Notes: generated from the sequence alone by a model not told the origin. Numbered from the stretch's first letter, positions 27,572-56,273 are shown. The stretch: DNA of 56,598 bases from an uncultured Candidatus Saccharibacteria bacterium (GCA_964603485.1 CAZRVE010000001.1:42342-98939), one strand, 5' to 3'. Program-made: numbers and translations.

Positions 27572-28666
27572 ATGATTATCATCGACTGGGTTTTCATCAT
27601 CTTACTGATTGGGTTCCTCCTGATCAGTTGGAGTTCGACTGTCGCATTTGTTCTTTTCCTCTTTCTCGTAGCGGTCTCTTTTCGATGGCTGGCGAGAATG
27701 GGTCGCTTCTTCCTTGCGGTACCGGTAAACTCCTTTGCACTTCTCACAAGAATTGCAAACAAAGATACCGATGTCACAAAGGGTGGTGGCGATGTGTTCG
27801 ATATCGCTCACTCCGTCCCAGGGAAGATCATCAACAAGGGGTCCACACCCGAAGACTTGATGTCTTGGGAATTCAAGGATGGCGCAGAAGAACGAGACAT
27901 TCTCAACTTCATCCTACTTCGATACTTAGGTATCCAGTGGATCGGAGTCTTCTCGACAGCTCGACTCAATGACGTCAAAGACTTACGTCTACGACGGAAT
28001 CCTGAAGAAGACGTGTACGGGGTGAAGGATCGAACGAAGGAAACTCCCTTTGTCTTTTTCTCAGAAAACCCCGCCGTTGTCTTGAAGGGGATCGAAACTT
28101 CCGATGGACTCGGCATCGACCTGCGCTTCACCTTCATAGCTGAACGTACTCGTCCGCTTTTCTCCGTGGTCCGAGTCGCCGACGTCTATGCGGTGGTGAC
28201 AACGAAGGTTCAGGAAGCAGTCATCACCGTTACCGGAGACTACTCGGCACATGAAATCGTCAAAGGTAAGGACAGCAGCAAGATCAAGAAGAAAATTGTC
28301 GCTGTCCTTGAAGACCCCAATTTCATCGAAGAGGTTCTCCGAGCAACAGGCCTGACTCTCTCTGAAATCGACCTCAGCGATATCAATTTCGATGAGAAAA
28401 CCCGATTAATCATCGAGACGCAGGCTGCGGCAGAAGCGGAAGCTCAGCGTCTCAGGGTTGAAGCTGCTGGTAAAAGGGATGCAAAACTCTTGGCGGTTGA
28501 AGCCGATAAGGCAGAAATCGACCAGGTCATCCTCCCTCTCGCAAACCAGCCTGGTGCAGCGGCAATTATGGCTGCAAAAGCGTATCGTGACAACACAACA
28601 GTTACCACGTACGCGCCAGGAGGAAATGCCGGCCTCCTCATCAATCCAACAGAACCGAAAAAGTAG
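27572..28666 (+). CDS. SPFH/band-7 (stomatin/HflK-like) membrane protein
   Basis: N-terminal TM helices, SPFH-like core, then Ala/Glu-rich coiled-coil ETQAAAEAEAQRLRVEAAGKRDAKLLAVEADKAE. Start at ATG 27572 with GGAGA SD. Confidence 0.65.
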   Translation: MIIIDWVFIILLIGFLLISWSSTVAFVLFLFLVAVSFRWLARMGRFFLAVPVNSFALLTRIANKDTDVTKGGGDVFDIAHSVPGKIINKGSTPEDLMSWEFKDGAEERDILNFILLRYLGIQWIGVFSTARLNDVKDLRLRRNPEEDVYGVKDRTKETPFVFFSENPAVVLKGIETSDGLGIDLRFTFIAERTRPLFSVVRVADVYAVVTTKVQEAVITVTGDYSAHEIVKGKDSSKIKKKIVAVLEDPNFIEEVLRATGLTLSEIDLSDINFDEKTRLIIETQAAAEAEAQRLRVEAAGKRDAKLLAVEADKAEIDQVILPLANQPGAAAIMAAKAYRDNTTVTTYAPGGNAGLLINPTEPKK

Positions 28667-28796
28667 TGATGTTCCTCATAAGTCGACCCTCACAGGGGTC
28701 GACTTTTTCTTATAAGAGATATTGACAAAGCATTATAAAAAATGGTATAATACTATTAGAGATCTTTGACTGACTTACCTACTACAGGAGACTTCA

Positions 28797-30203
28797 GTGT
28801 CAACCACTCATCTTTGGCCGAAGGGGCTCAAGCGAACCCCACGGACAATCGTTGGGGCAACAGTCATCGTTGTTGCGATGATTGCATTCTTCAGACTCCT
28901 GTCCGGTGTCCCGAATGTATTCCGAAGCAATGGACAGAGTAGGGCGCAGGCTTGCCTCACGGCAGACCTCGCTGAAGCAGCCGGCACGCAAGACACCATC
29001 GCACAGACGCTTTGTGATTCTCCAGGTATTCCCTGGGGAACAATTGGGCTCGTTCTACTTGCGATCATCGCACTCTCCTCCCTCGTCTTCTTCATCCGCC
29101 GCAGAATCGGTAAAGAAAAGGCTGGTGAAGGAAAAACTGCTGAAGGAAAGATTGTGAGATGGATATCTTCCATTGTAACACTCGGGGGGGTTCTCAAGAT
29201 TACGATCCTCTACGGACTCCTCAACCTCTTGGCATTCATCCTGTGGCCCGATAAGTACGGGACATGGATGTATCAAATGTGGTTCTGGCAGATGCAAGGA
29301 GGTATTGTAATCGTTGCAATCCTTCTTGCGCTGATGTCAGATACGAAGACAAAGGTCATTGGATCTATTGGTGCGCTCATCTTAGGCATCTGGATCGTCT
29401 CAGTGGGATGGAAATGGGGGTCAGAAGAGTTCAAGAAGAGAACTTCTGGCACCACGACCACAGCTACACCAACCCCAACAACCGGAACTCCATCTGGAGC
29501 ATCTGCAAGTTGGGATTGGGCATCCATCAACGGCCCCGAAAAGGACACCGTGATGGCCGCCTTCCCAGGCGACACCGTCATGTGGAAGATTGCTGCAGCC
29601 GAGAGTGACTACACCCAGTTCAGGGTGGATAGCAACGGCGACAGTTCAATCGTCCAGAACAAGGATGGCTTCGATGCATACGGTATCTTCCAGATCAGAA
29701 AATCGGTCTGGGACAACTGGTGCAAAGAACGAGGCTTCGACATCATGAAGACTCATGGCAACATTGGGTGTGCCAAAGCAATCAAGGCTAAGTATCCGAA
29801 AGGAAACCCTTGGCTCGCAAGCGCGCATCTGTGGCGCGACAGCACTACCGTCGACCCATGCGCTCAGTATGCGCGATACGGTGGAGTAAGCATGCTCGAC
29901 TTTGTCCGTAAGGACACCGTCATCACAACGGGAGATGTCGATTTCACCCGAAGGATCATGACGGAAAATATGGTTGTCGATTGGGTTTCGGTAAACTTCC
30001 GCACGGACTACGTGGTACGGTACGGATACCTTGACCCAATTACCAATCAGATTGTCGTGGCAGAAGACACGATCGAAAAGGAGAAGTGCCCTGAAGACAA
30101 CCGTCTTCCGCGCTACCCTCTCTGGGTCGAGTTCAAATCCTTGGACGCTGATCCGATCATGATCGAGATCACGTTCTCAAAGGACAAGCGTACTCGGCAG
30201 TAG
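28797..30203 (+). CDS. Polytopic membrane protein (about 6 TM) with Thr/Pro linker and C-terminal lysozyme-like domain showing C-type (GH22-like) lysozyme signatures
   Basis: C-terminal region AAESDYTQFRV...DAYGIFQIRKSVWDNWC...GCAKAIKAKYPKGNPWLASAHLW parallels hen lysozyme FESNFNTQA...DYGILQINSRWWC...[23 protein letters not shown] (catalytic Glu and Asp positions conserved). Could alternatively be an SLT/GH23-like domain. Confidence 0.6.
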   Translation: MSTTHLWPKGLKRTPRTIVGATVIVVAMIAFFRLLSGVPNVFRSNGQSRAQACLTADLAEAAGTQDTIAQTLCDSPGIPWGTIGLVLLAIIALSSLVFFIRRRIGKEKAGEGKTAEGKIVRWISSIVTLGGVLKITILYGLLNLLAFILWPDKYGTWMYQMWFWQMQGGIVIVAILLALMSDTKTKVIGSIGALILGIWIVSVGWKWGSEEFKKRTSGTTTTATPTPTTGTPSGASASWDWASINGPEKDTVMAAFPGDTVMWKIAAAESDYTQFRVDSNGDSSIVQNKDGFDAYGIFQIRKSVWDNWCKERGFDIMKTHGNIGCAKAIKAKYPKGNPWLASAHLWRDSTTVDPCAQYARYGGVSMLDFVRKDTVITTGDVDFTRRIMTENMVVDWVSVNFRTDYVVRYGYLDPITNQIVVAEDTIEKEKCPEDNRLPRYPLWVEFKSLDADPIMIEITFSKDKRTRQ

Positions 30204-31029: not shown

Positions 31030-31371
31030 TTATGGATTTGGATTAAGAGGCAACCACTGTACAGGACTGCCTCCAAAACTTGCATCTTGTAGAAAAGAAA
31101 TTATTCCAACAAGAGAAGCCATTACAAAAAGCGCGATGACACTCCAGAACATAAATCTCCTCCCTTCAGCGATTGCTTTTTCATCACCCGCCGCACGAAT
31201 AAACTTTGCAATGCCCCAGAAAAATAAGAGAAGAGCAATTGAAGCAGTTAGGATAATAAGATCTGCCGCGATCCCTCCGAGCGCATAACTCCCAAAGAGT
31301 TGTTGAATACTTGCAATCTGTGCGTGAGCAAAAAAAGGAACGAAAAAGAATAGAGAAAGAATAATTTTCAT
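31030..31371 (-). CDS. Secreted two-TM small protein, VirB2/TrbC-like paralog 3
   Basis: Signal peptide ...FAHA|QIA. Motif LFFWGIAKFIRAAGDEKAIAEGRRFMFW. ATGA overlap with paralog 4. Confidence 0.6.
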   Translation of the reverse strand: MKIILSLFFFVPFFAHAQIASIQQLFGSYALGGIAADLIILTASIALLLFFWGIAKFIRAAGDEKAIAEGRRFMFWSVIALFVMASLVGIISFLQDASFGGSPVQWLPLNPNP

Positions 31372-31763
31372 GGTGTTGAAGTAGGAAGAAGTGGTAAACC
31401 AATTGGCCCTGGACCAAATAGTGAGTTAGAGAAAAATTGCAGAAATCCCCATATAGAAAACATTACGAAAAGAATGATAACTCCCCAAAAAAGAAACTTT
31501 TTTCCGTCTTGAACTTTCTTTTCGTCTCCTGCGGAATTAATAAACTTTGCAATACCCCAAAAGAAGACGAGAACCGCAACCGTACTCACAAAAGGAAGAA
31601 GGATGCCTATAAAGTTGGTCGCATGACATACAAAATCTTTAAAATCTGAGGGAGGCGCAGTCGGAGCGTTTAAATTACCAGGAATACACGCCGCATATGT
31701 AGTGATAGGTAAAAATGATGCAACAATGATCAGAAGTGTGAAAATGAATACAGAATATTTCAT
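31368..31763 (-). CDS. Secreted two-TM small protein, VirB2/TrbC-like paralog 4
   Basis: Start taken at MKYSVF (ATG 31763), not the 41-codon upstream extension in the ORF track. Motif VFFWGIAKFINSAGDEKKVQDGKKFLFWGV. Confidence 0.6.
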   Translation of the reverse strand: MKYSVFIFTLLIIVASFLPITTYAACIPGNLNAPTAPPSDFKDFVCHATNFIGILLPFVSTVAVLVFFWGIAKFINSAGDEKKVQDGKKFLFWGVIILFVMFSIWGFLQFFSNSLFGPGPIGLPLLPTSTP

Positions 31764-31764
31764 A

Positions 31765-32148
31765 TTAAGTAATCTGCTGAATAGTGCTCTCAATTGCAAG
31801 AGAAATCGCCCATGCACCGAGAAGAATCGCTGTACCAATTGCTGCATAAAGAAATGCCTTCTTAGCAGTTGCAAGCTTTGTTTCATTACCCCTTGAAGTC
31901 ACAAAGAGAAATCCAGAGTAAATAATAAAGATTACTGCAATCACTCCGCCCACTGGCAAAATTACATCTGTAATTACTAGATTAATAAATGCGTAGAGAG
32001 AGTTCGTTCCATTCTTGAGAGGGTTCGGAATATTTATTGGATAATTTATTGGTGGAGGTGGTGTTCCACCTCCAGCTTGAGCGAATGCGATCTGAGCGCG
32101 GACGAGAAGGAAGGTAATTGCGGTAAGTAAGTAGTTAAGATATCTCAT
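31765..32148 (-). CDS. Secreted two-TM small protein, VirB2/TrbC-like paralog 5 (divergent)
   Basis: Signal peptide ...IAFA|QAGGG, Pro-rich N-terminus, hydrophobic helix, SRGNETKLATAKK loop, second helix. Confidence 0.5.
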   Translation of the reverse strand: MRYLNYLLTAITFLLVRAQIAFAQAGGGTPPPPINYPINIPNPLKNGTNSLYAFINLVITDVILPVGGVIAVIFIIYSGFLFVTSRGNETKLATAKKAFLYAAIGTAILLGAWAISLAIESTIQQIT

Positions 32149-46979: not shown

Positions 46980-47900
46980 ATGTACGATCTTGCAATCCTT
47001 GGAGGCGGGCCGGCTGGTGTAGCGGCAGGAGTATATGCCTCTCGAAAAAGACTCAAAACTGTATTTATTACTGACTCTTGGGGCGGTCAATCTGTCGTAT
47101 CAGAAGGAATCGAAAACTGGATTGGAACAATAAAGATTCCCGGCACACAGCTTGCCGAAGATCTAAAAAATCACCTAAAAGCATATGCTGGAGATATTGT
47201 AGATATCCATGAAGGAGAACGCGTTACCACAATCACAAAGAAAGGTGAGTCATTTATGGTGAGAACTGATAAGGGAGAATACGAGGCGAAAACCGTCCTC
47301 GTTACAACAGGAAGCCATCGAAGAAAGCTCGAGATCCCTGGGGCAGAGCAATATGAAAATAAAGGAATCACCTACTGTGCGTCCTGCGACGGCCCGCTTT
47401 TCTCTGGTCAAGATGTAGTAGTAATCGGAGGAGGAAATGCCGGCTTTGAAACTGCAGCCCAGCTTCTTGCATATACAAAAAGCGTCACACTCCTCAATCG
47501 TGGAAATGAGTTTAAAGCAGACCCCGTAACTGTCTCAAAAGTGCTTTCTCATGCAAACATGAAATCCATCATGAATGCTGTTCCTGTTGAGATAAAAGGT
47601 GATTCGTTCGTAAAAAGCTTAGTGTACGAAGACGCAACCACCAAGGAACAACACACTATCGATACTACAGGTATTTTTGTAGAAATCGGACTTCTTCCAT
47701 CTACTGAATTTGTAAAAGACGTAGTAGAGCTTAACCAATACGGACAGATCGTTACCGATCCTCGCACCCAAGCGACTAAAACGCCCGGTATTTGGGCCGC
47801 AGGTGACGTTACTGACACTCTTTACCATCAGAACAATATTGCAGCCGGAGACGCGGTTCGGGCACTCGAAGACATCTATATCCACCTTCACGCAAAATAA
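46980..47900 (+). CDS. trxB: Thioredoxin-disulfide reductase
   Basis: GGGPAG FAD motif, redox CASCDG, NADPH GGGNAGFE. Confidence 0.85.
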   Translation: MYDLAILGGGPAGVAAGVYASRKRLKTVFITDSWGGQSVVSEGIENWIGTIKIPGTQLAEDLKNHLKAYAGDIVDIHEGERVTTITKKGESFMVRTDKGEYEAKTVLVTTGSHRRKLEIPGAEQYENKGITYCASCDGPLFSGQDVVVIGGGNAGFETAAQLLAYTKSVTLLNRGNEFKADPVTVSKVLSHANMKSIMNAVPVEIKGDSFVKSLVYEDATTKEQHTIDTTGIFVEIGLLPSTEFVKDVVELNQYGQIVTDPRTQATKTPGIWAAGDVTDTLYHQNNIAAGDAVRALEDIYIHLHAK

Positions 47901-47901
47901 C

Positions 47902-47929
47902 AAAAACCCCGACATGTGTCGGGGTTTTT
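47902..47929. terminator. Bidirectional intrinsic terminator, family 3
   Basis: aaaaaccccgacatgtgtcggggttttt between convergent trxB and CAP-domain gene. Confidence 0.7.
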
Positions 47930-47930
47930 G

Positions 47931-48983
47931 TTAGAGCACTACGACTTCTGGGAAGAGTACCACTCGAAATACGTACGCAAGAACGCAGATTAAAATAATG
48001 AGAAATATTCCAAATCCAATGTGTTTCGGATGCTGTTTCCTAAGCTCTATTCCAATCATAAGCGCCAATGCGAGAAGGACAAAAGCGCCCAAAATCAGGT
48101 ATACGGAACTCACTGCTTTCTTTGGACTTGCAAGCATCTCTAACGCAAAACTTTTTTCCTCTCCTTGGGACATCTGCCCTGATTCCGCACTCACAGAATT
48201 ACCTCCTTCAACATTTTCCGCCTCAATATAGGTCTCGGTTTCACCTAAGACACGAGTCGGCTTTGTGATAATCGGAGAAGTTGTTGGAGACGGAGTTGCA
48301 ACAGTAGGCTTCACGACAGATTTCACTTGAGCTTTTAGAGTCGTGGTGCTTGTGGTCGCGCGAGTCTGAGCATTTACTGGAGTCACTTTTAAAGCATTCT
48401 CCACCAAGCGCGTAGGAGTATTGCGCAAAGGCTTTCCAAACATCTGTACTACAAAAATAGTCTCTCGTCCGTTGTAATACCCCTTTGCGGTTGCAATACC
48501 AATCTCTGTAAATTTACTATTAAGAATATTGGCACGGTGTCCAGGAGAATTCATCCATGCACTATCAACATCAGTAGAATCCACGAAGTTAATCGCCAAG
48601 TTTTCTCCCGCATACTGAAAGTCATACTGAGCTTCTTTAAACCAATACCAAGGAGTCTTACCCTCAGGGCTTGTATGAGCAAAATACCCCTTGCTTGCCA
48701 TGTCATTTGCCTTCTTCTGGGCCGCCACCTCAAGGAGTGGGTTTGTAGTGAGAGAAGAAAGTTTATTGTTTACTCGGTTATTATTTGCAAGCTCCACAAG
48801 AGATCTTGGGATTACCGCAGAAAGAAGAGAGGTCTCTTGAATTACAGTTACATGAAGAATTCCAACAAAGAAAACAAGGAGGGCGATGAAGGAAAGAATT
48901 CCAACTGACGCCTTTCGCATAATATGGGGAACGTATTCATTCTCCTCGTTCGGAATAAAATATTTCTTCACAAAAGCTTTCAT
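47931..48983 (-). CDS. CAP/SCP/PR-1-like domain protein with N-terminal TM, Thr/Ser/Pro-rich linker and C-terminal hydrophobic tail
   Basis: GYFAHTSPEGK...GENLA...WMNSPGHRANIL CAP signatures. Confidence 0.7.
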   Translation of the reverse strand: MKAFVKKYFIPNEENEYVPHIMRKASVGILSFIALLVFFVGILHVTVIQETSLLSAVIPRSLVELANNNRVNNKLSSLTTNPLLEVAAQKKANDMASKGYFAHTSPEGKTPWYWFKEAQYDFQYAGENLAINFVDSTDVDSAWMNSPGHRANILNSKFTEIGIATAKGYYNGRETIFVVQMFGKPLRNTPTRLVENALKVTPVNAQTRATTSTTTLKAQVKSVVKPTVATPSPTTSPIITKPTRVLGETETYIEAENVEGGNSVSAESGQMSQGEEKSFALEMLASPKKAVSSVYLILGAFVLLALALMIGIELRKQHPKHIGFGIFLIILICVLAYVFRVVLFPEVVVL

Positions 48984-49026
48984 TAGCTATAATTATACCA
49001 CATCTAAAGAATTTAGACAATATGCC

Positions 49027-49632
49027 CTATTCGCGCACCCTTTCCGTAAACACCACCAAACGCTTATCGTAGGTCTTCGTCTTAGGGTCCCACGTACCAT
49101 CACATGTTATCAGATTAAGCATCTCGCCTGAAGCCTCTCCAAATATCTCCTCAAGGGGAGGGTTCTCATAATCCACGAGCCGTATTTCCCTTACCATAAA
49201 AGCCAGCCTCTCTCCCCCGTCCGTCTCAACATATACCTTGTCCCCAATCCTCAGTTGTTTAAGATTAAAAAATACAGCAGGCCTTCCTCCTCCATTATCG
49301 AGATGTCCCGCAAGAACCGCATTTCCAATTGCCCCAGGAATAGGTCCGTATCGATACCAGCCCACATCTTCATATTTAACCGGCACAGCCATATTCCCCG
49401 ACTTAGTCTTACCTACCGGAAGCACAGCACCTTCAATATTGGCGACAGGAATAGTAACCCTTATTGGCGTGGATGTTCCTACATCACCTGTAAATATTCC
49501 ACCCTCCGGAACCGGAACTGAGACAAGATTTCTTGCATTGTTTTTCTCTATCGCAACAAATATCAGACCCAACAAAATAAGAAATACCGCATTTGCAACA
49601 AGTATTTTTTTATAACGGGAAAAAAACATCAT
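49027..49632 (-). CDS. Sortase family transpeptidase
   Basis: N-terminal TM. Catalytic triad context AVLAGHLD (His), LNLITCDG (Cys), RLVVFT (Arg). Confidence 0.75.
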   Translation of the reverse strand: MMFFSRYKKILVANAVFLILLGLIFVAIEKNNARNLVSVPVPEGGIFTGDVGTSTPIRVTIPVANIEGAVLPVGKTKSGNMAVPVKYEDVGWYRYGPIPGAIGNAVLAGHLDNGGGRPAVFFNLKQLRIGDKVYVETDGGERLAFMVREIRLVDYENPPLEEIFGEASGEMLNLITCDGTWDPKTKTYDKRLVVFTERVRE

Positions 49633-50195
49633 AATTGTTCTGTCTCAAGTGTACGCAAAAGACTGAGGAGAAGATTAATGAGCTCAGTAAGAGCTTTAAT
49701 CTGGGATTGCTGATCTGCGTTAAAAGACGGAACATTATCTGTATTTGGTTTCGCAAAATAAGTGACCACATAGGAGGCGTTCCCCCCTTGATAGGATCCG
49801 TCCACAATAGAGATACCTATTTCTTTAAAATCGGGTCGTAAGATATTGGCCCGATGAGAAGCGGACCGCATCCAATCAGATATGATCTCTGATTCTGTTT
49901 TAAAGTTCACTGCGAGATTCTCTCCGGCATTGTCGTAAAGATATCCCGCATCTTCAATAAAAGACCATGGAACTCCTTCAAGGGACTGCGTATGTTTGAG
50001 CTCCCTTAAAAACGTGAGGGCCGTAGCCTTGTTAAGAGCTGCAAGACTCAGTTTGTTATTTTGAACCAAAGGCGCCAGTCCTGCAGAAATCCTCTCATCA
50101 TTTATCTCCTCAAGAATACGTTCTGTATTGAGAGCATAGGAAGGCAACGGGAGGAAAAGTACAATAAAGAGGAGAATTGTAAATCGCTTCATCAT
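49629..50195 (-). CDS. Secreted CAP/SCP/PR-1-like domain protein
   Basis: Signal peptide. GENLAVNF...WMRSASHRANIL. ATGA overlap with sortase gene. Confidence 0.7.
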   Translation of the reverse strand: MMKRFTILLFIVLFLPLPSYALNTERILEEINDERISAGLAPLVQNNKLSLAALNKATALTFLRELKHTQSLEGVPWSFIEDAGYLYDNAGENLAVNFKTESEIISDWMRSASHRANILRPDFKEIGISIVDGSYQGGNASYVVTYFAKPNTDNVPSFNADQQSQIKALTELINLLLSLLRTLETEQL

Positions 50196-50276
50196 CCTAT
50201 TATACAGCTCAAATACAAAAGAATCCCAAGCATACGCGAGGGATTCTTTTTGAACTTATTTCCTATCTGAGAGAGT

Positions 50277-53200
50277 CTATTTTTGAAGCTTAAGAACCCG
50301 GAATGAGATGTAATTAAGCGCGAGGAGAGCGATAATGCCAGAAAGGATAATCGCGACAGCATTTACTGCAGAAGTCTGAGGTTCTGCTATTGGAGCGTTA
50401 CCTGTATCTGGAAGACCAGGGAGCTCTGTGAAGGCGCCTGCTACCTCTGAGGAGCTAGGAACTAAACTTCCTCCTGAAGAGCCACCCCCGCTCCTACGAG
50501 ACTGTCCTGTGGTATTTGTTGAAGAACCACCTCCACCACCACCGTCACCACCGCAACCATCTGTACAATCGGAGACCCCAATGAAGTCATCGTTAGTGAC
50601 AGTACACGTCTTTGATTCCCCAGCGCCCATAGTGCCAGAACATTCGGTTGAGTAACTTACGTTATATCCTAGAGAATCATTCTCAGTAACAGAGTATGTT
50701 CCAGGGTCAAGAGTGATTGTGATTCCAGTTGAAGAACCCTGGACAGAACCTTGCGATGGATTTGTTCCAGCAATCGTGAAGGTGAAGTCCGTAGATGTAG
50801 CTGTTCCAACCAAGTTATCATTTATCACATTCTTAATGATAGTCAGAGTTCCTTTTGTAGGACCGCCATCACAATCGCTGTCACAGTCAACAGGAGGCTT
50901 TTCACACGTATCAGCATTCACGCTTAAGGTTGTTGACGCAGACTTATTAAGAGTTCCCTCTTGCCCATAAGAAGCAACCGCGTATGCAGTATTCTTCACA
51001 TCACAGACATTTGGCAATATATTGAGCGCCTCTACTGCATCAACGTCGTATCCGTCAGCCTCTTGCTCAAAGAGAGTCTTATTAGAATCCTCTGTAAGAC
51101 GAATCTTTGACGTAGTCGCAAGGGAACCAAGATCAACCGCCTGGTCTCGAGTAACTGTTCCCAAAATGGTCCAGCCAATTCCATTCCAAGCTTCTACCTT
51201 TACCTTCTCATCAGGATAAGTTGTTCCTCCGGTAATTTCATAAACTTTTACGTCATTACCAGGACCGTTAAATATTGTTCCTCCGAAGGTTACTACAATA
51301 CTTCCATTATCGAATCCGAGAGAGAAGAATGAGTTTGGCACAACCGTATCATATGGATTACCTGCGGACTGCGGTGCTCCAAACATCTTCGTTGGATCTG
51401 TTCGATCAGAAAGGATGTTTGTTCCGTTCTTCCTCTTTGCTTGATTATTTTGCTCAGAACCAGACGCCCACTTTAGATTTGCATTCCATGCATCAAGAGA
51501 GGCGATGAATGAAACACTTCCAGAAGATCCTGAAGTCTGTGCTCCTAAATTCCAGGTAACGGTACCAGGAGTGGTGAGGACTTCTCCACCAAGAGTCGCA
51601 GAAACAAACGAAAGTCCTGCAGGAATTGGATCCGTAATCACAAGATTTGAGACGTTGCCATTAGAAACCGCCCAGTCAATAGTGAAGGTAATTTCTCCCG
51701 TTGAAGTTGCGTAGCTTGCGGATTTTGAGAGATTGACAGTTGGAGCATCAGGACATTTTTCATTCCATACAATCACATAGACATTAGTATCTTGAACATT
51801 AATCATTACAGATGAAGAGGTTGCATTTCCTTCTGCATTTGCAAAGCTACTCCCCACACTGTAGCCATTAAGTCTAAATTTTCCAGGTTGACACTGTCCT
51901 CCGATTGGAATTACGAGCGCATCTGCTGGTTCTGTTGCATTTGTACGCTCTGCAACTTGTGCCGTACTTTGGAAATCAATGAGTTCTGGACTTTCCCATA
52001 CGAAGTTATTGCCAGAATTAAGAGTCGCATTACCGCTTCCTGCACTCGTTACATAGTCAATTCCAAATTGATTTCCTTCGCTCGACTGTGAATTTGCAGG
52101 CTCGCCGTTGATGTATTTCTTTACGATTACTCGGGAAGTCTCATCCTGAGGATCATCATTTCCGCAATCTTTTGCAGTCCAAGAAAGGTTGAACAAGAGA
52201 CCTCCAGGATTATTTTCCTTAGAAAGGTTTGGACGCGCGAGGTTCTTCACTCGAATTTCAAGGGTGTTTGATCCATCCACAAGAAGACTTGTTACATCCC
52301 ATGTGTCAGCCGAAGAGTGATTATCTTCAGAAGCATCTACCATAGGAGGAATGCCAGGTTGTCCGTTTACCCAAACCTCATACTCATTATCAGCAGCAAT
52401 CTTTAGAGATCCTGATTCTGGAGTACCGACAACATTAAACGTCCTTGTAAACGTTACCCATTTATCGACTGTCCAGTTTGCATCATATGGATCTTCTGAC
52501 CAAATCCATTTTGCATTCGCATCACCAACATTTGCTTCCCACACACTGCCACCAGGACCATCAAGGGCTTGGATTGCAGAAACAACGGAGACTGGTACAG
52601 AGTTGGTGTTTGGAGTTGAAGTAGCTCCATCAATATTTACAAGAGTGATTTTTGTATCTTCATCACTGACGACTGACCCCAAAGTAGGATTACAGTCTGG
52701 CGCACATTGCACACTCGCATTATCAAGAAATACCCCAAGAGAATTCGAGCTATTAAGCCCCGCATCAGCAAAAGCAACTCGGGTCATTGTGGAAGTTGCA
52801 GTAACCTTGACCACATAATCTTTCCAGATATTTGTAGTTTCAGAAGATCCGTCTCGAGAAATTGTCCCCGTAGCGGAAGTTCCTCCCCACAAAACACTGA
52901 GCATATTATCCTGAGTTCCTGTACCTGGCCTTGGTGCGAAAGCAAATTTCACAACATACTCTTTTCCAGGAACGGTTGGAATGTCTTGGTAAATTCGAGC
53001 TGATGCAGGCTCTCCACTCAATGCACTATCCGGGCCACCCCAATCTGTATCAAGCTCTGCATACTGAGCCCCTTCGTCCGCAAGCCATAGAGGATTTACT
53101 GATCCGCCTTTATGGAGTTCAAGATTTGCGGTGTCAGGAATAAAGACACTATTAAATTGAGTCGAAGATGGAAGAAGCCACTCTACGCCCCAACCAAGCT

Positions 53201-55202
53201 CCGTTGCTCCATTAGGATATATATTCCATCCTGCACTGTGAGTAACTACCGGTTTTTCAAAGCTTCCATTCGCAAGAAGCTCTACACCCGGCTCACATAC
53301 TAACTGCTTTGGAGTACAACGAACATCCACAATCTTTACCACAAGGTCATTGTAGTCCGGCTCAACTTCTTGACCCCAAGATCCTGAAAGAAGATCTTCG
53401 AACGCAACTACATACCTGTTATTTCCAGGGTTGTAGACAGCAACATGATCTTTTCCTCCATCATTTGTATTAAGTGCTTTTTCTGAGAAAAATACTTCAT
53501 CAGCTGAACCATTATCACTCACAATCGCAAACCCTACTGAACCATTTGAAGCAGGAATAGTTACTGGGATCGCTGGATCAGTTATAGAAAGTTCAGGGAG
53601 TGAATCATACGATCCGTTCAAAGGATCCCCTACGCGAAATATTCCAGTGAAGCTACCAGGTACGCCTTTCTTGTACCATCCAAAAACTTGATTGTTTGCC
53701 GCTTGCTTCCCAACAAGCTTCACCGCAAATTTTGCATCGGCTGCATTCGGATCAATATCCCACACCTGTGTATTCACCTGGTCGTTCTCTGGATCAATAC
53801 TCAAAACAGGTACAGATTCAGCAAATATTTGAGCAAGGTCTTTCTCTGCAAGTGGTGCCTCACCAAGGACAAACTCTTCATCGTCGCCAAGGTTATTTGG
53901 AATCATGCAAGAATTGTCTCGGTCTGGAGGAGGTGGAGTATCGTCGCAACGTGGACTGTTTACCTTTACCATATCAGAGTACGCATCTTTTGTAATGGAC
54001 TCTTCACCAAACATTGCATGTGCATGCGCTTTGTTTTTAGCAATTTCACAAGTCTTCTCTGTCCATAGCTCTACGCGAAAAGTAATAGTTCCCTGTGAAC
54101 CTTCTTCTTTTGCTCCAAGATTCCAAACAACTTCTCTATCTTGTGTTGGATTTGAAGGGTGGAAATTACGAGATCCTGGAAGAAGTGGTGGTGTTGTTGA
54201 CGGCACCATAGTATTCACCGCCAAATCTGTCCATGCAGGCAATGTGTCAGTAATGGTGAGATTGTCTACATCATTTTCTTTAACACTCCAATTAATTGTA
54301 TAAGTGACTCGGTGGTTCCCGTCATACTGAGCCGTCTTAGAAAGTTCTATTTCTGGCTCTGTCGGGTCATTCTCTCCACACCAAATATCACCATCTGGCT
54401 TAGTTGGCTGTTGATTCTGAGGGTTTACTGGACCATTATAGAGATAATCACCGTGACCCTCGTGGTCAGGTCCACCATCCCATGCACTTTCATTTATTCT
54501 AATCGCCTCCCAAGGATTATTTTCACTTGCGGTAAGGTGGCAGATATTTATTTTCTTAATTTCATCTCCCGAAACAACTACACCGTCTACTCGAAAATGT
54601 TCATCATCGGCACTTGATTGGTTACGAAAACGAAGACGAAAAGAGGTTTCATCTAAAGATTCTGGCAAATCGAAAAGTCCCTGATTCGTCCAAGTTGAAT
54701 CACTATTTAAGTTATGACTCTTTAATTGAGCCCAACCTCCTTCTTCGTTACACTCACCTTCTCCAGTATTGTATTCAACGATACCGTTATCTCCCTCTTC
54801 TTCAGCCTGAGCATCACCTCTCCAATAATAAGAGAGCTGTAATCCTGTTTTGTCTTGAGCATTAATTTGTCGACAAATCCAACCATCCTGAGAACCAGCA
54901 TCTCCACTATCTTCGGCAATTTTTGCAAAACGTCCTCCATTTGGACTTACTGTATCTTCGCCACTTTCAGTAGCTTTTTTTGCAATGGTTCCTTCCTCGT
55001 GTTCATCCCAATCAGGAATATTTGCTAAATCATTTCCATTTCCAAATGTCTCAGAAAAAACGTTCGTCGCTGCAATTACTTCCTGAATTGCAAAAAGTCC
55101 AGGACCAAAAGCCTGGAATACCAAAAGAAACGCAAGTAATGCGCTCGCAAGACGTCGGGAAACATTCTTCCAGCCCTTTTGCGAAGTGAAAAGTGTGCTC
55201 AT
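50277..55202 (-). CDS. Giant (1641 aa) cell-surface protein with signal peptide, DUF11-like repeats, Cna-B-like domain and C-terminal LPxTG sorting signal
   Basis: N-terminal signal peptide. Repeats TDTLPAWTDL.../ITDPIPAGLSFVSATLGGEV..TWNLG. DPGTYSVTENDSLGYNV. Gly/Ser low-complexity. C-terminus LPDTGN + hydrophobic helix + RVLKLQK. Confidence 0.8.
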   Translation of the reverse strand: MSTLFTSQKGWKNVSRRLASALLAFLLVFQAFGPGLFAIQEVIAATNVFSETFGNGNDLANIPDWDEHEEGTIAKKATESGEDTVSPNGGRFAKIAEDSGDAGSQDGWICRQINAQDKTGLQLSYYWRGDAQAEEEGDNGIVEYNTGEGECNEEGGWAQLKSHNLNSDSTWTNQGLFDLPESLDETSFRLRFRNQSSADDEHFRVDGVVVSGDEIKKINICHLTASENNPWEAIRINESAWDGGPDHEGHGDYLYNGPVNPQNQQPTKPDGDIWCGENDPTEPEIELSKTAQYDGNHRVTYTINWSVKENDVDNLTITDTLPAWTDLAVNTMVPSTTPPLLPGSRNFHPSNPTQDREVVWNLGAKEEGSQGTITFRVELWTEKTCEIAKNKAHAHAMFGEESITKDAYSDMVKVNSPRCDDTPPPPDRDNSCMIPNNLGDDEEFVLGEAPLAEKDLAQIFAESVPVLSIDPENDQVNTQVWDIDPNAADAKFAVKLVGKQAANNQVFGWYKKGVPGSFTGIFRVGDPLNGSYDSLPELSITDPAIPVTIPASNGSVGFAIVSDNGSADEVFFSEKALNTNDGGKDHVAVYNPGNNRYVVAFEDLLSGSWGQEVEPDYNDLVVKIVDVRCTPKQLVCEPGVELLANGSFEKPVVTHSAGWNIYPNGATELGWGVEWLLPSSTQFNSVFIPDTANLELHKGGSVNPLWLADEGAQYAELDTDWGGPDSALSGEPASARIYQDIPTVPGKEYVVKFAFAPRPGTGTQDNMLSVLWGGTSATGTISRDGSSETTNIWKDYVVKVTATSTMTRVAFADAGLNSSNSLGVFLDNASVQCAPDCNPTLGSVVSDEDTKITLVNIDGATSTPNTNSVPVSVVSAIQALDGPGGSVWEANVGDANAKWIWSEDPYDANWTVDKWVTFTRTFNVVGTPESGSLKIAADNEYEVWVNGQPGIPPMVDASEDNHSSADTWDVTSLLVDGSNTLEIRVKNLARPNLSKENNPGGLLFNLSWTAKDCGNDDPQDETSRVIVKKYINGEPANSQSSEGNQFGIDYVTSAGSGNATLNSGNNFVWESPELIDFQSTAQVAERTNATEPADALVIPIGGQCQPGKFRLNGYSVGSSFANAEGNATSSSVMINVQDTNVYVIVWNEKCPDAPTVNLSKSASYATSTGEITFTIDWAVSNGNVSNLVITDPIPAGLSFVSATLGGEVLTTPGTVTWNLGAQTSGSSGSVSFIASLDAWNANLKWASGSEQNNQAKRKNGTNILSDRTDPTKMFGAPQSAGNPYDTVVPNSFFSLGFDNGSIVVTFGGTIFNGPGNDVKVYEITGGTTYPDEKVKVEAWNGIGWTILGTVTRDQAVDLGSLATTSKIRLTEDSNKTLFEQEADGYDVDAVEALNILPNVCDVKNTAYAVASYGQEGTLNKSASTTLSVNADTCEKPPVDCDSDCDGGPTKGTLTIIKNVINDNLVGTATSTDFTFTIAGTNPSQGSVQGSSTGITITLDPGTYSVTENDSLGYNVSYSTECSGTMGAGESKTCTVTNDDFIGVSDCTDGCGGDGGGGGGSSTNTTGQSRRSGGGSSGGSLVPSSSEVAGAFTELPGLPDTGNAPIAEPQTSAVNAVAIILSGIIALLALNYISFRVLKLQK

Positions 55203-55436
55203 GTGTTTTGTCTACTACTAAATTTAAAAACAAAATAAATAAAAAACTTAAAAAACAGAGATCGAACGGAGAACGTACTGGAAAAAATTATATAGCAAAT
55301 AAAAAGACCAGTCAATAGAACGTGCCCACAAACAGCAAGGCCATACTATCTGAAAAAAGTATACCCTCTCCTTATAAGGGGTCAACAAAAATATAAAGAA
55401 AAAGGGGACAAGCTTTAGCAGCTTGTCCCCACTCTT

Positions 55437-56273
55437 TCACTTGCTCTTGCAAGCGAGACACTCGACGTTCCGTTGTCCCAACTCATGGCCGATATAACCA
55501 GCCACGATTCCCGTGAGAATCATCCCCGCCCAAAACTTCTTGGACTTGAATACACTTCTCTGGACCGGCACCGAAACGGTAACGGTGTCAGGCTTCACGG
55601 CCGGAGGCGGAACCCGAAGGTCGACGAATCGAAGGTGTCCGTACCTGGCCAGAGGAATCACCTGTCCATCCGTCAGTGAGCCAATCCCGTTTGCGACCAC
55701 AGCGGTCCCCACACTAAAACGCAGGGTGTCCGTTGCTGTCCGCTCGACGATCTTCTCGACAGGCTTGGGCGGAGTGGCAAGCTCTTCGCTTGTGCGATAG
55801 CCCTTCACCCCGTTCCAGCAGTCGATTGGAGCAATAGGCATACCCGAGGTCGAATTGTTGCGATTGTAGAGGCAAAGCTCATCTCGTCCGAAGGGTCGAC
55901 GATAGTTGTAGTCGATCACCCCCGCGGTATTTGGACCCTTTCGCAAGGTCGCTACTTGAGCGAGTCCTGCAGGGCACTTCGCCTCAGTCAGCTGTTCGAT
56001 GTACCCGAGAAGTTGCGAAACTTGGGTGAGGTTCGAAGACGGATCAACCGTCCTGAACATGTCAACCAGCTGCTGGCAGGAAACATTGAACATCTCCTTC
56101 CAGGCGGGTCCCGTGCAGGCACCAGGGGTCTTCAAGAGCGCGACCACCTCTGCTTTATGCAGAGGGCCGTCCTTCTTGGAGATCGGGTACCCACGGTCCT
56201 GAGCCATGGCCGGGACCGAAAAGCCCACGAACATGACCAGGGCATAGAAAGCCTCAAAAAACGCCTTTCGCAT
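55437..56273 (-). CDS. Hypothetical secreted protein (signal peptide), strongly G+C-biased codon usage
   Basis: 278 aa. MRKAFFEAFYALVMFVGFSVPAMA signal. Hairpin terminator ggggacaagct-ttagc-agcttgtcccc downstream on minus strand. Confidence 0.5.
   Translation of the reverse strand: MRKAFFEAFYALVMFVGFSVPAMAQDRGYPISKKDGPLHKAEVVALLKTPGACTGPAWKEMFNVSCQQLVDMFRTVDPSSNLTQVSQLLGYIEQLTEAKCPAGLAQVATLRKGPNTAGVIDYNYRRPFGRDELCLYNRNNSTSGMPIAPIDCWNGVKGYRTSEELATPPKPVEKIVERTATDTLRFSVGTAVVANGIGSLTDGQVIPLARYGHLRFVDLRVPPPAVKPDTVTVSVPVQRSVFKSKKFWAGMILTGIVAGYIGHELGQRNVECLACKSK

Follow-up and report, generated by a model that had tools for sequence, protein, structure and literature searches.

Which genes of a bacterial surface locus work together, and which of them only stand side by side? 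We asked this of four neighbouring genes on a 56,598-nucleotide stretch of DNA from an uncultured Candidatus Saccharibacteria bacterium (GCA_964603485.1 CAZRVE010000001.1:42342-98939); the word window is used below for this whole stretch. The genes encode a very large modular surface protein (the giant protein), a sortase and two proteins with a CAP/SCP domain, named here CAP1 and CAP2. An earlier reading, made from the sequence alone, had joined all of them into one host-attachment apparatus. Our analysis divides them. The locus probably comprises a dedicated class-F-type sortase with a single local substrate, a wall-anchored and lectin-rich stalk, while CAP1 would be coupled to the sortase and CAP2 would be a bystander.

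The four open reading frames (ORFs) claimed in the sequence-only reading were all recovered by an ORF check of the window, and Pfam confirmed their domains (CAP twice, Sortase, and SpaA_2, DUF4114, DUF642 and DUF11 in the giant protein). In the order of transcription, the genes and the sorting signal are:

50277..55202, minus strand: giant protein, a modular surface protein of 1641 amino acids (aa) and predicted sortase substrate, with signal peptide, lectin-like and immunoglobulin-like (Ig-like) modules, Gly/Ser-rich spacer and sorting signal (ORF check, Pfam)
50280..50414, minus strand: cell-wall sorting signal of the giant protein, composed of LPDTG (aa 1597-1601), a 10-residue polar spacer, a hydrophobic helix and RVLKLQK (sequence, orthologues)
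49629..50195, minus strand: CAP1, a 188-aa secreted CAP/SCP-domain protein with signal peptide and conserved C-terminal amphipathic helix (Pfam, alignment)
49027..49632, minus strand: sortase, 201 aa, with N-terminal transmembrane (TM) anchor, closest to class F (Pfam Sortase, NCBIfam class_F_sortase, alignment)
47931..48983, minus strand: CAP2, a 350-aa membrane protein, a neighbour and probably not a component (Pfam CAP, alignment)

We measured 645 bp between the stop codon of the giant gene and the start of the sortase gene, close to the 650 bp first estimated. CAP1 lies in this interval, and its stop codon shares a 4-bp ATGA overlap with the sortase start, as the earlier reading had also noticed.

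Sortase, sorting signal and predicted substrate

For comparison we used 80 sortase loci from species-representative genomes and several more from metagenomes. Twelve distinct loci are closely related and are called cassette loci here: the window itself, L001, L004, L008, L009, L010, L011, L012, L037, L159, L160 and L161. Of the named relatives, those nearest to the locus are metagenome-assembled genomes labelled Candidatus Zambryskibacteria, Paceibacteria and Parcubacteria group, which places the window among Patescibacteria of the Paceibacteria/Parcubacteria group.

Is the 201-aa protein a true sortase, and of which class? The Pfam Sortase family (PF04203) matches it with 77 bits against a cut-off of 26.6 and along profile positions 2-125 of 125. 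The catalytic residues His110 (codon 49303-49305), Cys177 (49102-49104, within the TLxTC-like motif NLITC) and Arg191 (49060-49062) are invariant in an alignment of 31 sortases with 35-68% identity, which includes proteins from Firmicutes named class F by NCBI. The triad recognized from its sequence contexts in the earlier reading is thus borne out, the catalytic Cys being present in every aligned homologue. Among the NCBIfam class models the best is class F (NF033748), with a margin of about 90 bits over class E (33.8 bits), SrtD (31.5), C (28.9), D (27.0) and GN (26.5); its 125.2 bits fall under the curated cut-off of 166, and we therefore term the sortase class-F-like and not a certified member. 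Homologues with 36-56% identity carry the class F name in NCBI and UniRef. A sequence search of PDB returned class C sortases only, with weak matches (E-value about 1e-4), and no class F structure was matched. As a separate observation, the longest sortase ORF of L010 (L010:9623-10492, first in-frame start taken by the ORF script) has an extension of about 90 residues, rich in Lys, Arg and Pro, before its TM helix; L010 is the cassette locus that has no CAP1.

The window sortase shares with class F sortases the fold, the His-Cys-Arg triad, the N-terminal TM anchor and an LPxTG-type substrate, and its relatives at 56% identity are so named by NCBI. It differs from them in its model score (125 against 166 bits), in its origin from Patescibacteria, in the position of its gene directly after a CAP-domain gene, and in the extended PGLP(N/D)TG(N/R) context of its predicted substrate motif. 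A biochemically studied example of the class is the housekeeping sortase of Propionibacterium/Cutibacterium acnes, which uses LPXTG as its substrate motif (PMC8225981).

The substrate candidate is the giant protein. Its C-terminus reads ELPGLPDTG-NAPIAEPQTS-AVNAVAIILSGIIALLALNYISF-RVLKLQK, where AVNAVAIILSGIIALLALNYISF is the hydrophobic helix. An extended signal, (E/Q)VLGA-x-T-x-PGLP(N/D)TG(N/R), followed by a helix and a basic tail, ends the large upstream protein in all related cassette loci, with the variants TPNTG in L010 and LPYTG/LPATG in L161. We also scanned the loci by rule for proteins whose final 60 residues contain xPxTG and, after it, a hydrophobic stretch free of charges and then a basic tail. 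In 55 of the 84 class-F-type loci such a protein is encoded no more than 2 kb from the sortase, and most of these 55 proteins are encoded less than 100 bp upstream of the sortase on the same strand. A pair of sortase and substrate is therefore the standard layout of the class-F-type sortase family. Within the 56.6-kb window one sortase was found, and the giant protein was the sole xPxTG-signal protein given by the same scan; L037 and L161 have two LPxTG proteins upstream of the sortase. The arrangement of the giant and sortase genes is not due to chance.

What does this substrate carry to the outside? Roughly ten modules make up the mosaic of the giant protein, and its orthologues, 585-1641 aa in length, keep differing subsets of them in differing orders. 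The modules that could be placed, all on the minus strand, are:

54552..55100, minus strand: head domain (aa ~35-217), a jelly-roll beta-sandwich without Pfam family (AlphaFold2, Foldseek)
53331..53546, minus strand: DUF4114 module (aa 553-624; Pfam PF13448, 27.6-31.9 bits, cut-off 27)
52698..53306, minus strand: DUF642 or choice-of-anchor-C module (aa ~633-835; Pfam PF04862, 26.4-32.8 bits, cut-off 27)
52113..52685, minus strand: galactose-binding-domain-like module (aa 840-1030; phmmer, weak Pfam matches, AlphaFold2, Foldseek)
51465..51716, minus strand: DUF11-type Ig-like repeat (aa 1163-1246; Pfam PF01345, NCBIfam TIGR01451)
50616..50852, minus strand: SpaA_2 prealbumin-like (CnaB-related) stalk domain (aa 1451-1529; Pfam PF19403, 34-36 bits, cut-off 25)

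The head domain was modelled by AlphaFold2 from a 26-sequence alignment with a mean predicted local distance difference test (pLDDT) of 91.9. Its best PDB matches in Foldseek (TM-score 0.5-0.6) are the cleaved-adhesin domains K1-K3 of gingipain, MAM domains (meprin, neuropilin), the Eph ligand-binding domain and CBM4/16. The domain is common to many large surface proteins, mostly at their N-terminus and internally in a few, and these proteins end in various anchors: C-termini containing PG_binding_1, plain TM helices or LPxTG. Head-domain proteins other than those with LPxTG are P0247, P0248, P0250, P0253, P0254, P0256, P0257, P0260, P0263 and P0265; most of them have PG_binding_1 (PF01471) and a conserved tail ...PWG...TG.VYKTT...IN...C...LP..., and this tail looks like a non-covalent cell-wall anchor, alternative to anchoring by sortase. 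Next to the head domain, at residues ~216-260 of the giant protein (54420-54557, minus strand), lies a short motif rich in Cys and His, KKINICHLTASENNPWEAIRINESAWDGGPDHEGHGDY, which recurs in the orthologues P0242-P0244 and those of L004 and L037. No Pfam family matched it at E ≤ 1, and it is possibly metal-binding.

The DUF642 module also matches NCBIfam TIGR04362 with an E-value of 2.3e-12, under the cut-off of that model. The module at aa 840-1030 is kept, by phmmer mapping, in most of the orthologous sortase substrates examined. It has weak Pfam matches to Bac_rhamnosid_N and Glyco_hydro_2_N2, and its AlphaFold2 model (pLDDT 80.8) is similar to sugar-binding beta-sandwiches found in alpha-L-rhamnosidases, in GH2 enzymes and in CBM35, at TM-scores of about 0.4-0.48; superposed on the alpha-L-rhamnosidase 3w5n, it gives a root-mean-square deviation of 2.6 over 118 columns with 23% identity. 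The DUF11 repeat scores 24.7 bits with PF01345 in the whole protein and 30.6 as a segment (cut-off 24.6), and 30.8 with TIGR01451 (cut-off 24). In the SpaA_2 region 77-83% of 30 copies keep K1457, E1507 and N1537, and C1521/C1533 do not vary; the K/E/N positions are compatible with an isopeptide of the CnaB type. A Gly/Ser-rich spacer precedes the sorting signal. No catalytic domain appeared among the modules annotated by Pfam, NCBIfam and fold searches.

The adhesin-like architecture proposed from DUF11-like and Cna-B-like modules is supported in this way, with DUF11 and SpaA_2 both above their Pfam cut-offs. Like the MSCRAMM/Cna-type and SpaA/DUF11 LPXTG adhesins of Gram-positive bacteria, the giant protein has a signal peptide, a binding head, an Ig-like stalk, a low-complexity wall-spanning spacer and LPxTG with helix and basic tail. 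It differs from them in its heads, which are MAM/cleaved-adhesin-like and CBM-like beta-sandwiches without Pfam family, in an anchor that hidden Markov models (HMMs) do not score, and in isopeptide bonds that are only suggested by the K/E/N positions. The shuffling of modules among orthologues is a pattern typical of surface proteins under what would be diversifying pressure. Judging from its modules, the giant protein most likely serves as an adhesin that binds glycans and evolves fast, and a role in host attachment is plausible.

How would such a system work? Gene content, motifs, folds, conservation and linkage were observed here, and for cleavage, wall attachment, ligand binding and the function of CAP1 we draw on what is known of the families. 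In the course of events that we consider most likely, the giant protein would be exported by the Sec route through its N-terminal signal peptide, and its C-terminal helix and basic tail would then keep it in the membrane. By analogy with studied sortases, the membrane-anchored enzyme, with Cys177 as nucleophile next to His110 and Arg191, would cut LPDT|G within ELPGLPDTGNAP and may transfer the giant protein to an amine of a peptidoglycan precursor. The expected outcome is a long, covalently anchored stalk (Gly/Ser spacer, SpaA-like domain, DUF11) bearing several lectin-like beta-sandwiches, with the MAM/cleaved-adhesin-like head at its tip. CAP1 would be co-transcribed and translationally coupled with the sortase.

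CAP1 and CAP2 beside the sortase

If the sortase and its substrate form a conventional pair, then we can ask: why does a CAP gene lie between them? CAP1 matches Pfam CAP (PF00188) with 54.7 bits against a cut-off of 21.1, and all seven aligned orthologues have the residues H68, E92, H114 and N117. Of the 11 loci in which the upstream side of the sortase is present, 10 have CAP1 immediately before the sortase gene, the two genes overlapping by 1-11 bp or standing 1-4 bp apart. This pairing is kept across loci in which CAP1 itself has diverged to 30-42% identity. L037 and L161, which have no CAP2 and carry other genes downstream, likewise keep the CAP1-sortase pair. What argues for a real link between CAP1 and the sortase is these two rearranged loci, together with how tightly the two genes are coupled in translation. 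CAP1 is probably a secreted accessory or partner of the sortase in one lineage, co-expressed with it.

The alternative with most in its favour is that CAP1 has no functional link with the sortase and is a CAP-family paralogue, placed between substrate and sortase, which has persisted through the ancestry of a narrow clade. CAP1 was indeed found in one lineage only, with sortases at least 46% identical to that of the window, and among the 75 more distant class-F-type loci there was no sortase with a CAP neighbour (phmmer, E < 1e-3). With this zero in 75, CAP neighbours are indeed unusual for this sortase family, in line with the earlier remark that paired CAP domains are uncommon partners of sortase substrates; the literature on sortases, Patescibacteria, LPXTG and class F sortases, as far as our incomplete coverage of it reaches, describes no CAP-sortase pairing. 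All carriers also share a wide synteny: the block S1-Pth-signal peptidase-HisRS-like-YbeY-FtsA-FtsZ-TrxB is common to the cassette loci, so that common descent accounts for part of the gene linkage. Finally, CAP1 is missing from L010, where substrate, sortase and CAP2 are all present, and therefore CAP1 is not indispensable. Mere inheritance sits less well with the overlap or the gap of at most 4 bp kept in 10 loci despite the divergence of CAP1, with the invariance of the metal-site-like residues H68, E92 and H114, and with the pair left intact in L037 and L161 despite downstream rearrangement. CAP1 and CAP2 share 39% identity in their CAP domains, and a neighbour-joining tree without bootstrap groups the CAP1 proteins in a separate, long-branched clade outside that of CAP2, which also speaks against recent CAP2 copies. 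We regard an unlinked CAP1 as rather unlikely, with a good deal still said in its favour. The idea that CAP1 is a recent tandem copy of CAP2 was rejected on the separate clades of that same unbootstrapped tree. Our metagenome scan for CAP1 used a single narrow pattern from a 4-sequence alignment, and with such a pattern divergent CAP1 genes in metagenomes may have been missed.

What could a sortase-coupled CAP1 do? Bacterial CAP/SCP proteins are envelope proteins whose function is mostly unknown. One of them, the divisome lipoprotein DalA from Rhodobacter, is a peptidoglycan-binding protein that follows FtsZ (PMC10470522). Because DalA binds peptidoglycan, an accessory role of CAP1 in binding the cell wall or its precursor is a reasonable guess, though only a guess. 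Its tasks might include binding of the peptidoglycan precursor or wall, or handling of the extended PGLPxTG signal. A bolder proposal makes CAP1 an obligate extracytoplasmic partner of the sortase, and so an accessory factor of a new kind, and/or makes the CAP2 family an envelope or lipid-handling protein relevant to life on a host; this we consider doubtful. Patescibacteria are lipid-auxotrophic cells living on hosts.

CAP2 matches Pfam CAP with 64.5 bits (cut-off 21.1). Its parts follow in the order: cytoplasmic N-terminus KKYFIPNEENEYxPH (KKYFIPNEENEYKPHLLRK), TM1, CAP domain, variable Ser/Thr/Pro linker, TM2, QHPK loop, TM3. The earlier description of a second CAP protein with a Ser/Thr/Pro stalk flanking the locus was right as to the CAP domain and the linker; the protein is not simply secreted, as it has three TM helices. 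Among the best-conserved parts of the family are the N-terminus KKYFIPNEENEYKPHLLRK (residues 1-25, 48909-48983, minus strand) and the QHPK loop that joins TM2 to TM3. The conservation of a cytoplasmic N-terminus hints at a cytoplasmic partner for this otherwise extracellular CAP protein.

Does CAP2 belong to the system? Two observations favour a single host-attachment apparatus in which the giant protein, CAP1, the sortase and CAP2 would all be functional components: the order giant-CAP1-sortase-CAP2 occurs in 8 of the 12 distinct related loci, and neither CAP domain has lost its conserved His/Glu/His residues. The adjacency, however, may be inherited with the longer shared synteny, and a separate promoter-like site precedes CAP2. 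L037 and L161 keep CAP1 and the sortase and lack CAP2. Conversely, CAP2 relatives occur where the rest of the system does not: in L087 one stands beside trxB-ftsZ-ftsA-ybeY without sortase, CAP1 or giant protein, in L088 and L089 they lie in other contexts with no sortase, and in 66 loci from metagenomes that encode membrane CAP proteins, of the CAP2 type or other, no sortase was found within 6 kb. A profile search with CAP2 gave thousands of relatives, and even the 120th best match was near full length (E-value 3e-108, 41% identity). Since CAP2 belongs to a Patescibacteria-wide family, has its own promoter-like site and also occurs without sortase, we consider it a neighbour and probably not a component. 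The single apparatus proposed at the outset therefore did not hold up, and we give a four-gene unit little chance of being correct.

Proteins of the CAP2 kind have been noticed before. CAP2 fits the description of 3.6k.fam08817 of Meheust et al. (bioRxiv 10.1101/335083), a family widespread in the Candidate Phyla Radiation (CPR) and having at least one TM segment and a CAP domain; the two were compared by description only. With the SCP/YkwD-type CAP proteins of known structure (PDB 4ifa of B. anthracis, BB0689 4d53, 4h0a) the window proteins share the CAP domain, with an E-value of 3.5e-15 to 4ifa, and all of these are extracytoplasmic envelope proteins. With DalA, which binds peptidoglycan and follows FtsZ, there is a parallel in the position of CAP2 next to trxB-ftsZ-ftsA, and both YkwD and DalA models give weak matches. 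These scores are far under the cut-offs: 105.8 and 79.4 bits for the two CAP proteins with YkwD (TIGR02909, cut-off 171), and 46.4 bits for CAP1 and CAP2 with DalA (NF052539, cut-off 200). In contrast to DalA, the window CAP proteins are not lipoproteins, as the alignments show no lipobox Cys in the signal or TM region of either, CAP2 has three TM helices, and the ftsZ adjacency is not general. A divisome-linked, DalA-like CAP2 was rejected because of the DalA score and because ftsZ is not a neighbour in L088, in L089 or in most of the metagenome loci.

Points against the proposed pairing

Several points weigh against the reading of the locus as a class-F-type sortase with a wall-anchored lectin-rich substrate and a coupled CAP1. 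Two of them, the class F score under its curated cut-off and the absence of CAP1 from L010, were given above. The fold matches of the giant modules are moderate (TM-score 0.4-0.6), and they point to a general ligand-binding fold and to no specific ligand. The matches to promoter and terminator consensus are no more numerous than in shuffled sequence, so that the operon layout is only suggestive.

The last point concerns the sorting signal. The Pfam Gram_pos_anchor and NCBIfam LPXTG-anchor HMMs score neither the last 70 nor the last 40 residues of the giant protein, even at E ≤ 10. The claim of a complete sorting signal is thereby divided: LPDTG, the helix and the basic tail are present and conserved, while recognition by substrate predictors, the lack of which the earlier reading had named as a refuting condition, was negative for these standard HMMs. 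The anchor HMMs are short models trained on classical Gram-positive signals. Because of this, and because the conservation and the gene linkage are strong, we weigh the negative as minor.

Could the motif nevertheless be idle, the giant protein being merely membrane-anchored and the sortase acting on another target? Besides the silent HMMs, a direct reading of the sequence shows a spacer between LPDTG and the helix which is longer than in classical Firmicutes signals. Yet the (E/Q)VLGA..PGLPxTG context is kept in orthologues whose upstream domains have been shuffled, xPxTG proteins stand near class-F-type sortases in the 55 of 84 loci already mentioned, and the window scan offered no other candidate substrate. 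We think it very improbable that the signal does not work. There is hardly any chance that the giant protein is a pilin polymerized by the sortase into a pilus of Gram-positive type, a reading suggested by its SpaA-type and DUF11 domains, by a borderline match to the isopeptide-forming fimbrial domain TIGR04226 (31.9 bits, cut-off 30, with no single stretch passing) and by the two LPxTG proteins upstream of the sortase in L037 and L161, and rejected because the class C sortase model gives 28.9 bits against a cut-off of 160, the window has a single sortase and a single substrate, and 1641 aa with many lectin-like modules are unlike pilin subunits, although no search for a pilin motif (YPKN) was made.

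Transcription signals, neighbouring genes and meaning of the locus

The predicted transcription signals and one further gene at this end of the window are:

55437..56273, minus strand: 278-aa protein of unknown family with signal peptide, Cys-containing ectodomain and C-terminal TM helix, a separate transcription unit (jackhmmer, alignment)
55404-55430: strong terminator-like hairpin after the 278-aa gene (scan)
55287..55315, minus strand: promoter-like site TTGACT-17-TATAAT upstream of the giant gene, 11/12 match (consensus scan only)
48992..49020, minus strand: promoter-like site TTGTCT-17-TG-TATAAT, which ends 9 nt before the CAP2 start codon (consensus scan and sequence)
47898..47933, both strands: bidirectional hairpin terminator with a 16-bp stem, for CAP2 and the convergent trxB (terminator scan)

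A hairpin and TGTATAAT lie upstream of CAP1. TG-extended -10-like hexamers end 5 nt before the start codon of CAP1 (50196-50215, minus strand) and 9 nt before that of CAP2 (48984-49020, minus strand). With hexamers so near the starts, the CAP1 and CAP2 mRNAs would be leaderless or nearly so, if the promoters are real. These sites are suggestive of four putative transcription units: the 278-aa gene, the giant gene, CAP1 with the sortase, and CAP2.

The 278-aa protein matches no Pfam or NCBIfam family. It has an ectodomain of about 130 aa with conserved Cys residues in the pattern PCP...E.C...CGN, a C-terminal TM helix and a short tail containing Cys. Homologues were detected by jackhmmer in L001 (4370-5119), L004 (5095-6108), L008 (2815-3687), L010 (6536-7600), L012 (464-1378) and L037 (9252-10406), and weakly in L011. 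Every cassette locus tested thus has a homologue; the test did not extend to L159, L160 and L161. The homologous gene usually lies just upstream of the giant gene, and in L037 it follows the sortase. It is possible that the surface locus includes the 278-aa protein as one more component.

Elsewhere the window encodes housekeeping functions: ClpB-type ATPases, topoisomerase I, RelA/SpoT, IF-2, GyrA, S1, YbeY, FtsA, FtsZ, TrxB and eight tRNAs. The content of guanine and cytosine (GC) rises to 0.51-0.52 at positions 28001-30000 and 1-2000, against about 0.43 elsewhere. The first of these stretches includes a 468-aa ORF (28797-30203) without credible family, beside a Band_7/SPFH protein, and a small T4SS_pilin-like ORF (31368-31886; 26.0 bits, cut-off 26.6) lies nearby.

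What, then, does the locus mean for its carriers? More than half of CPR genomes have sortases (PMC6744442). Since it is established that sortases and LPxTG proteins are widespread among CPR/Patescibacteria, the core finding is routine annotation: the gene pair is an ordinary sortase with its substrate from ultra-small Patescibacteria, and its one unusual point is the CAP1 gene wedged between the two and coupled to the sortase. For class-F-type sortase loci at large the comparison brings out a general design, with the substrate directly upstream. It also tells the two CAP genes apart, one as a member of a CPR-wide membrane family and the other as a lineage-specific gene coupled to the sortase. 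This coupling would be a lineage-specific variant that is open to simple biochemistry. For the uncultured Paceibacteria lineage that carries the locus, the analysis puts forward a candidate attachment factor, a surface protein that evolves fast and is rich in lectin-like modules.

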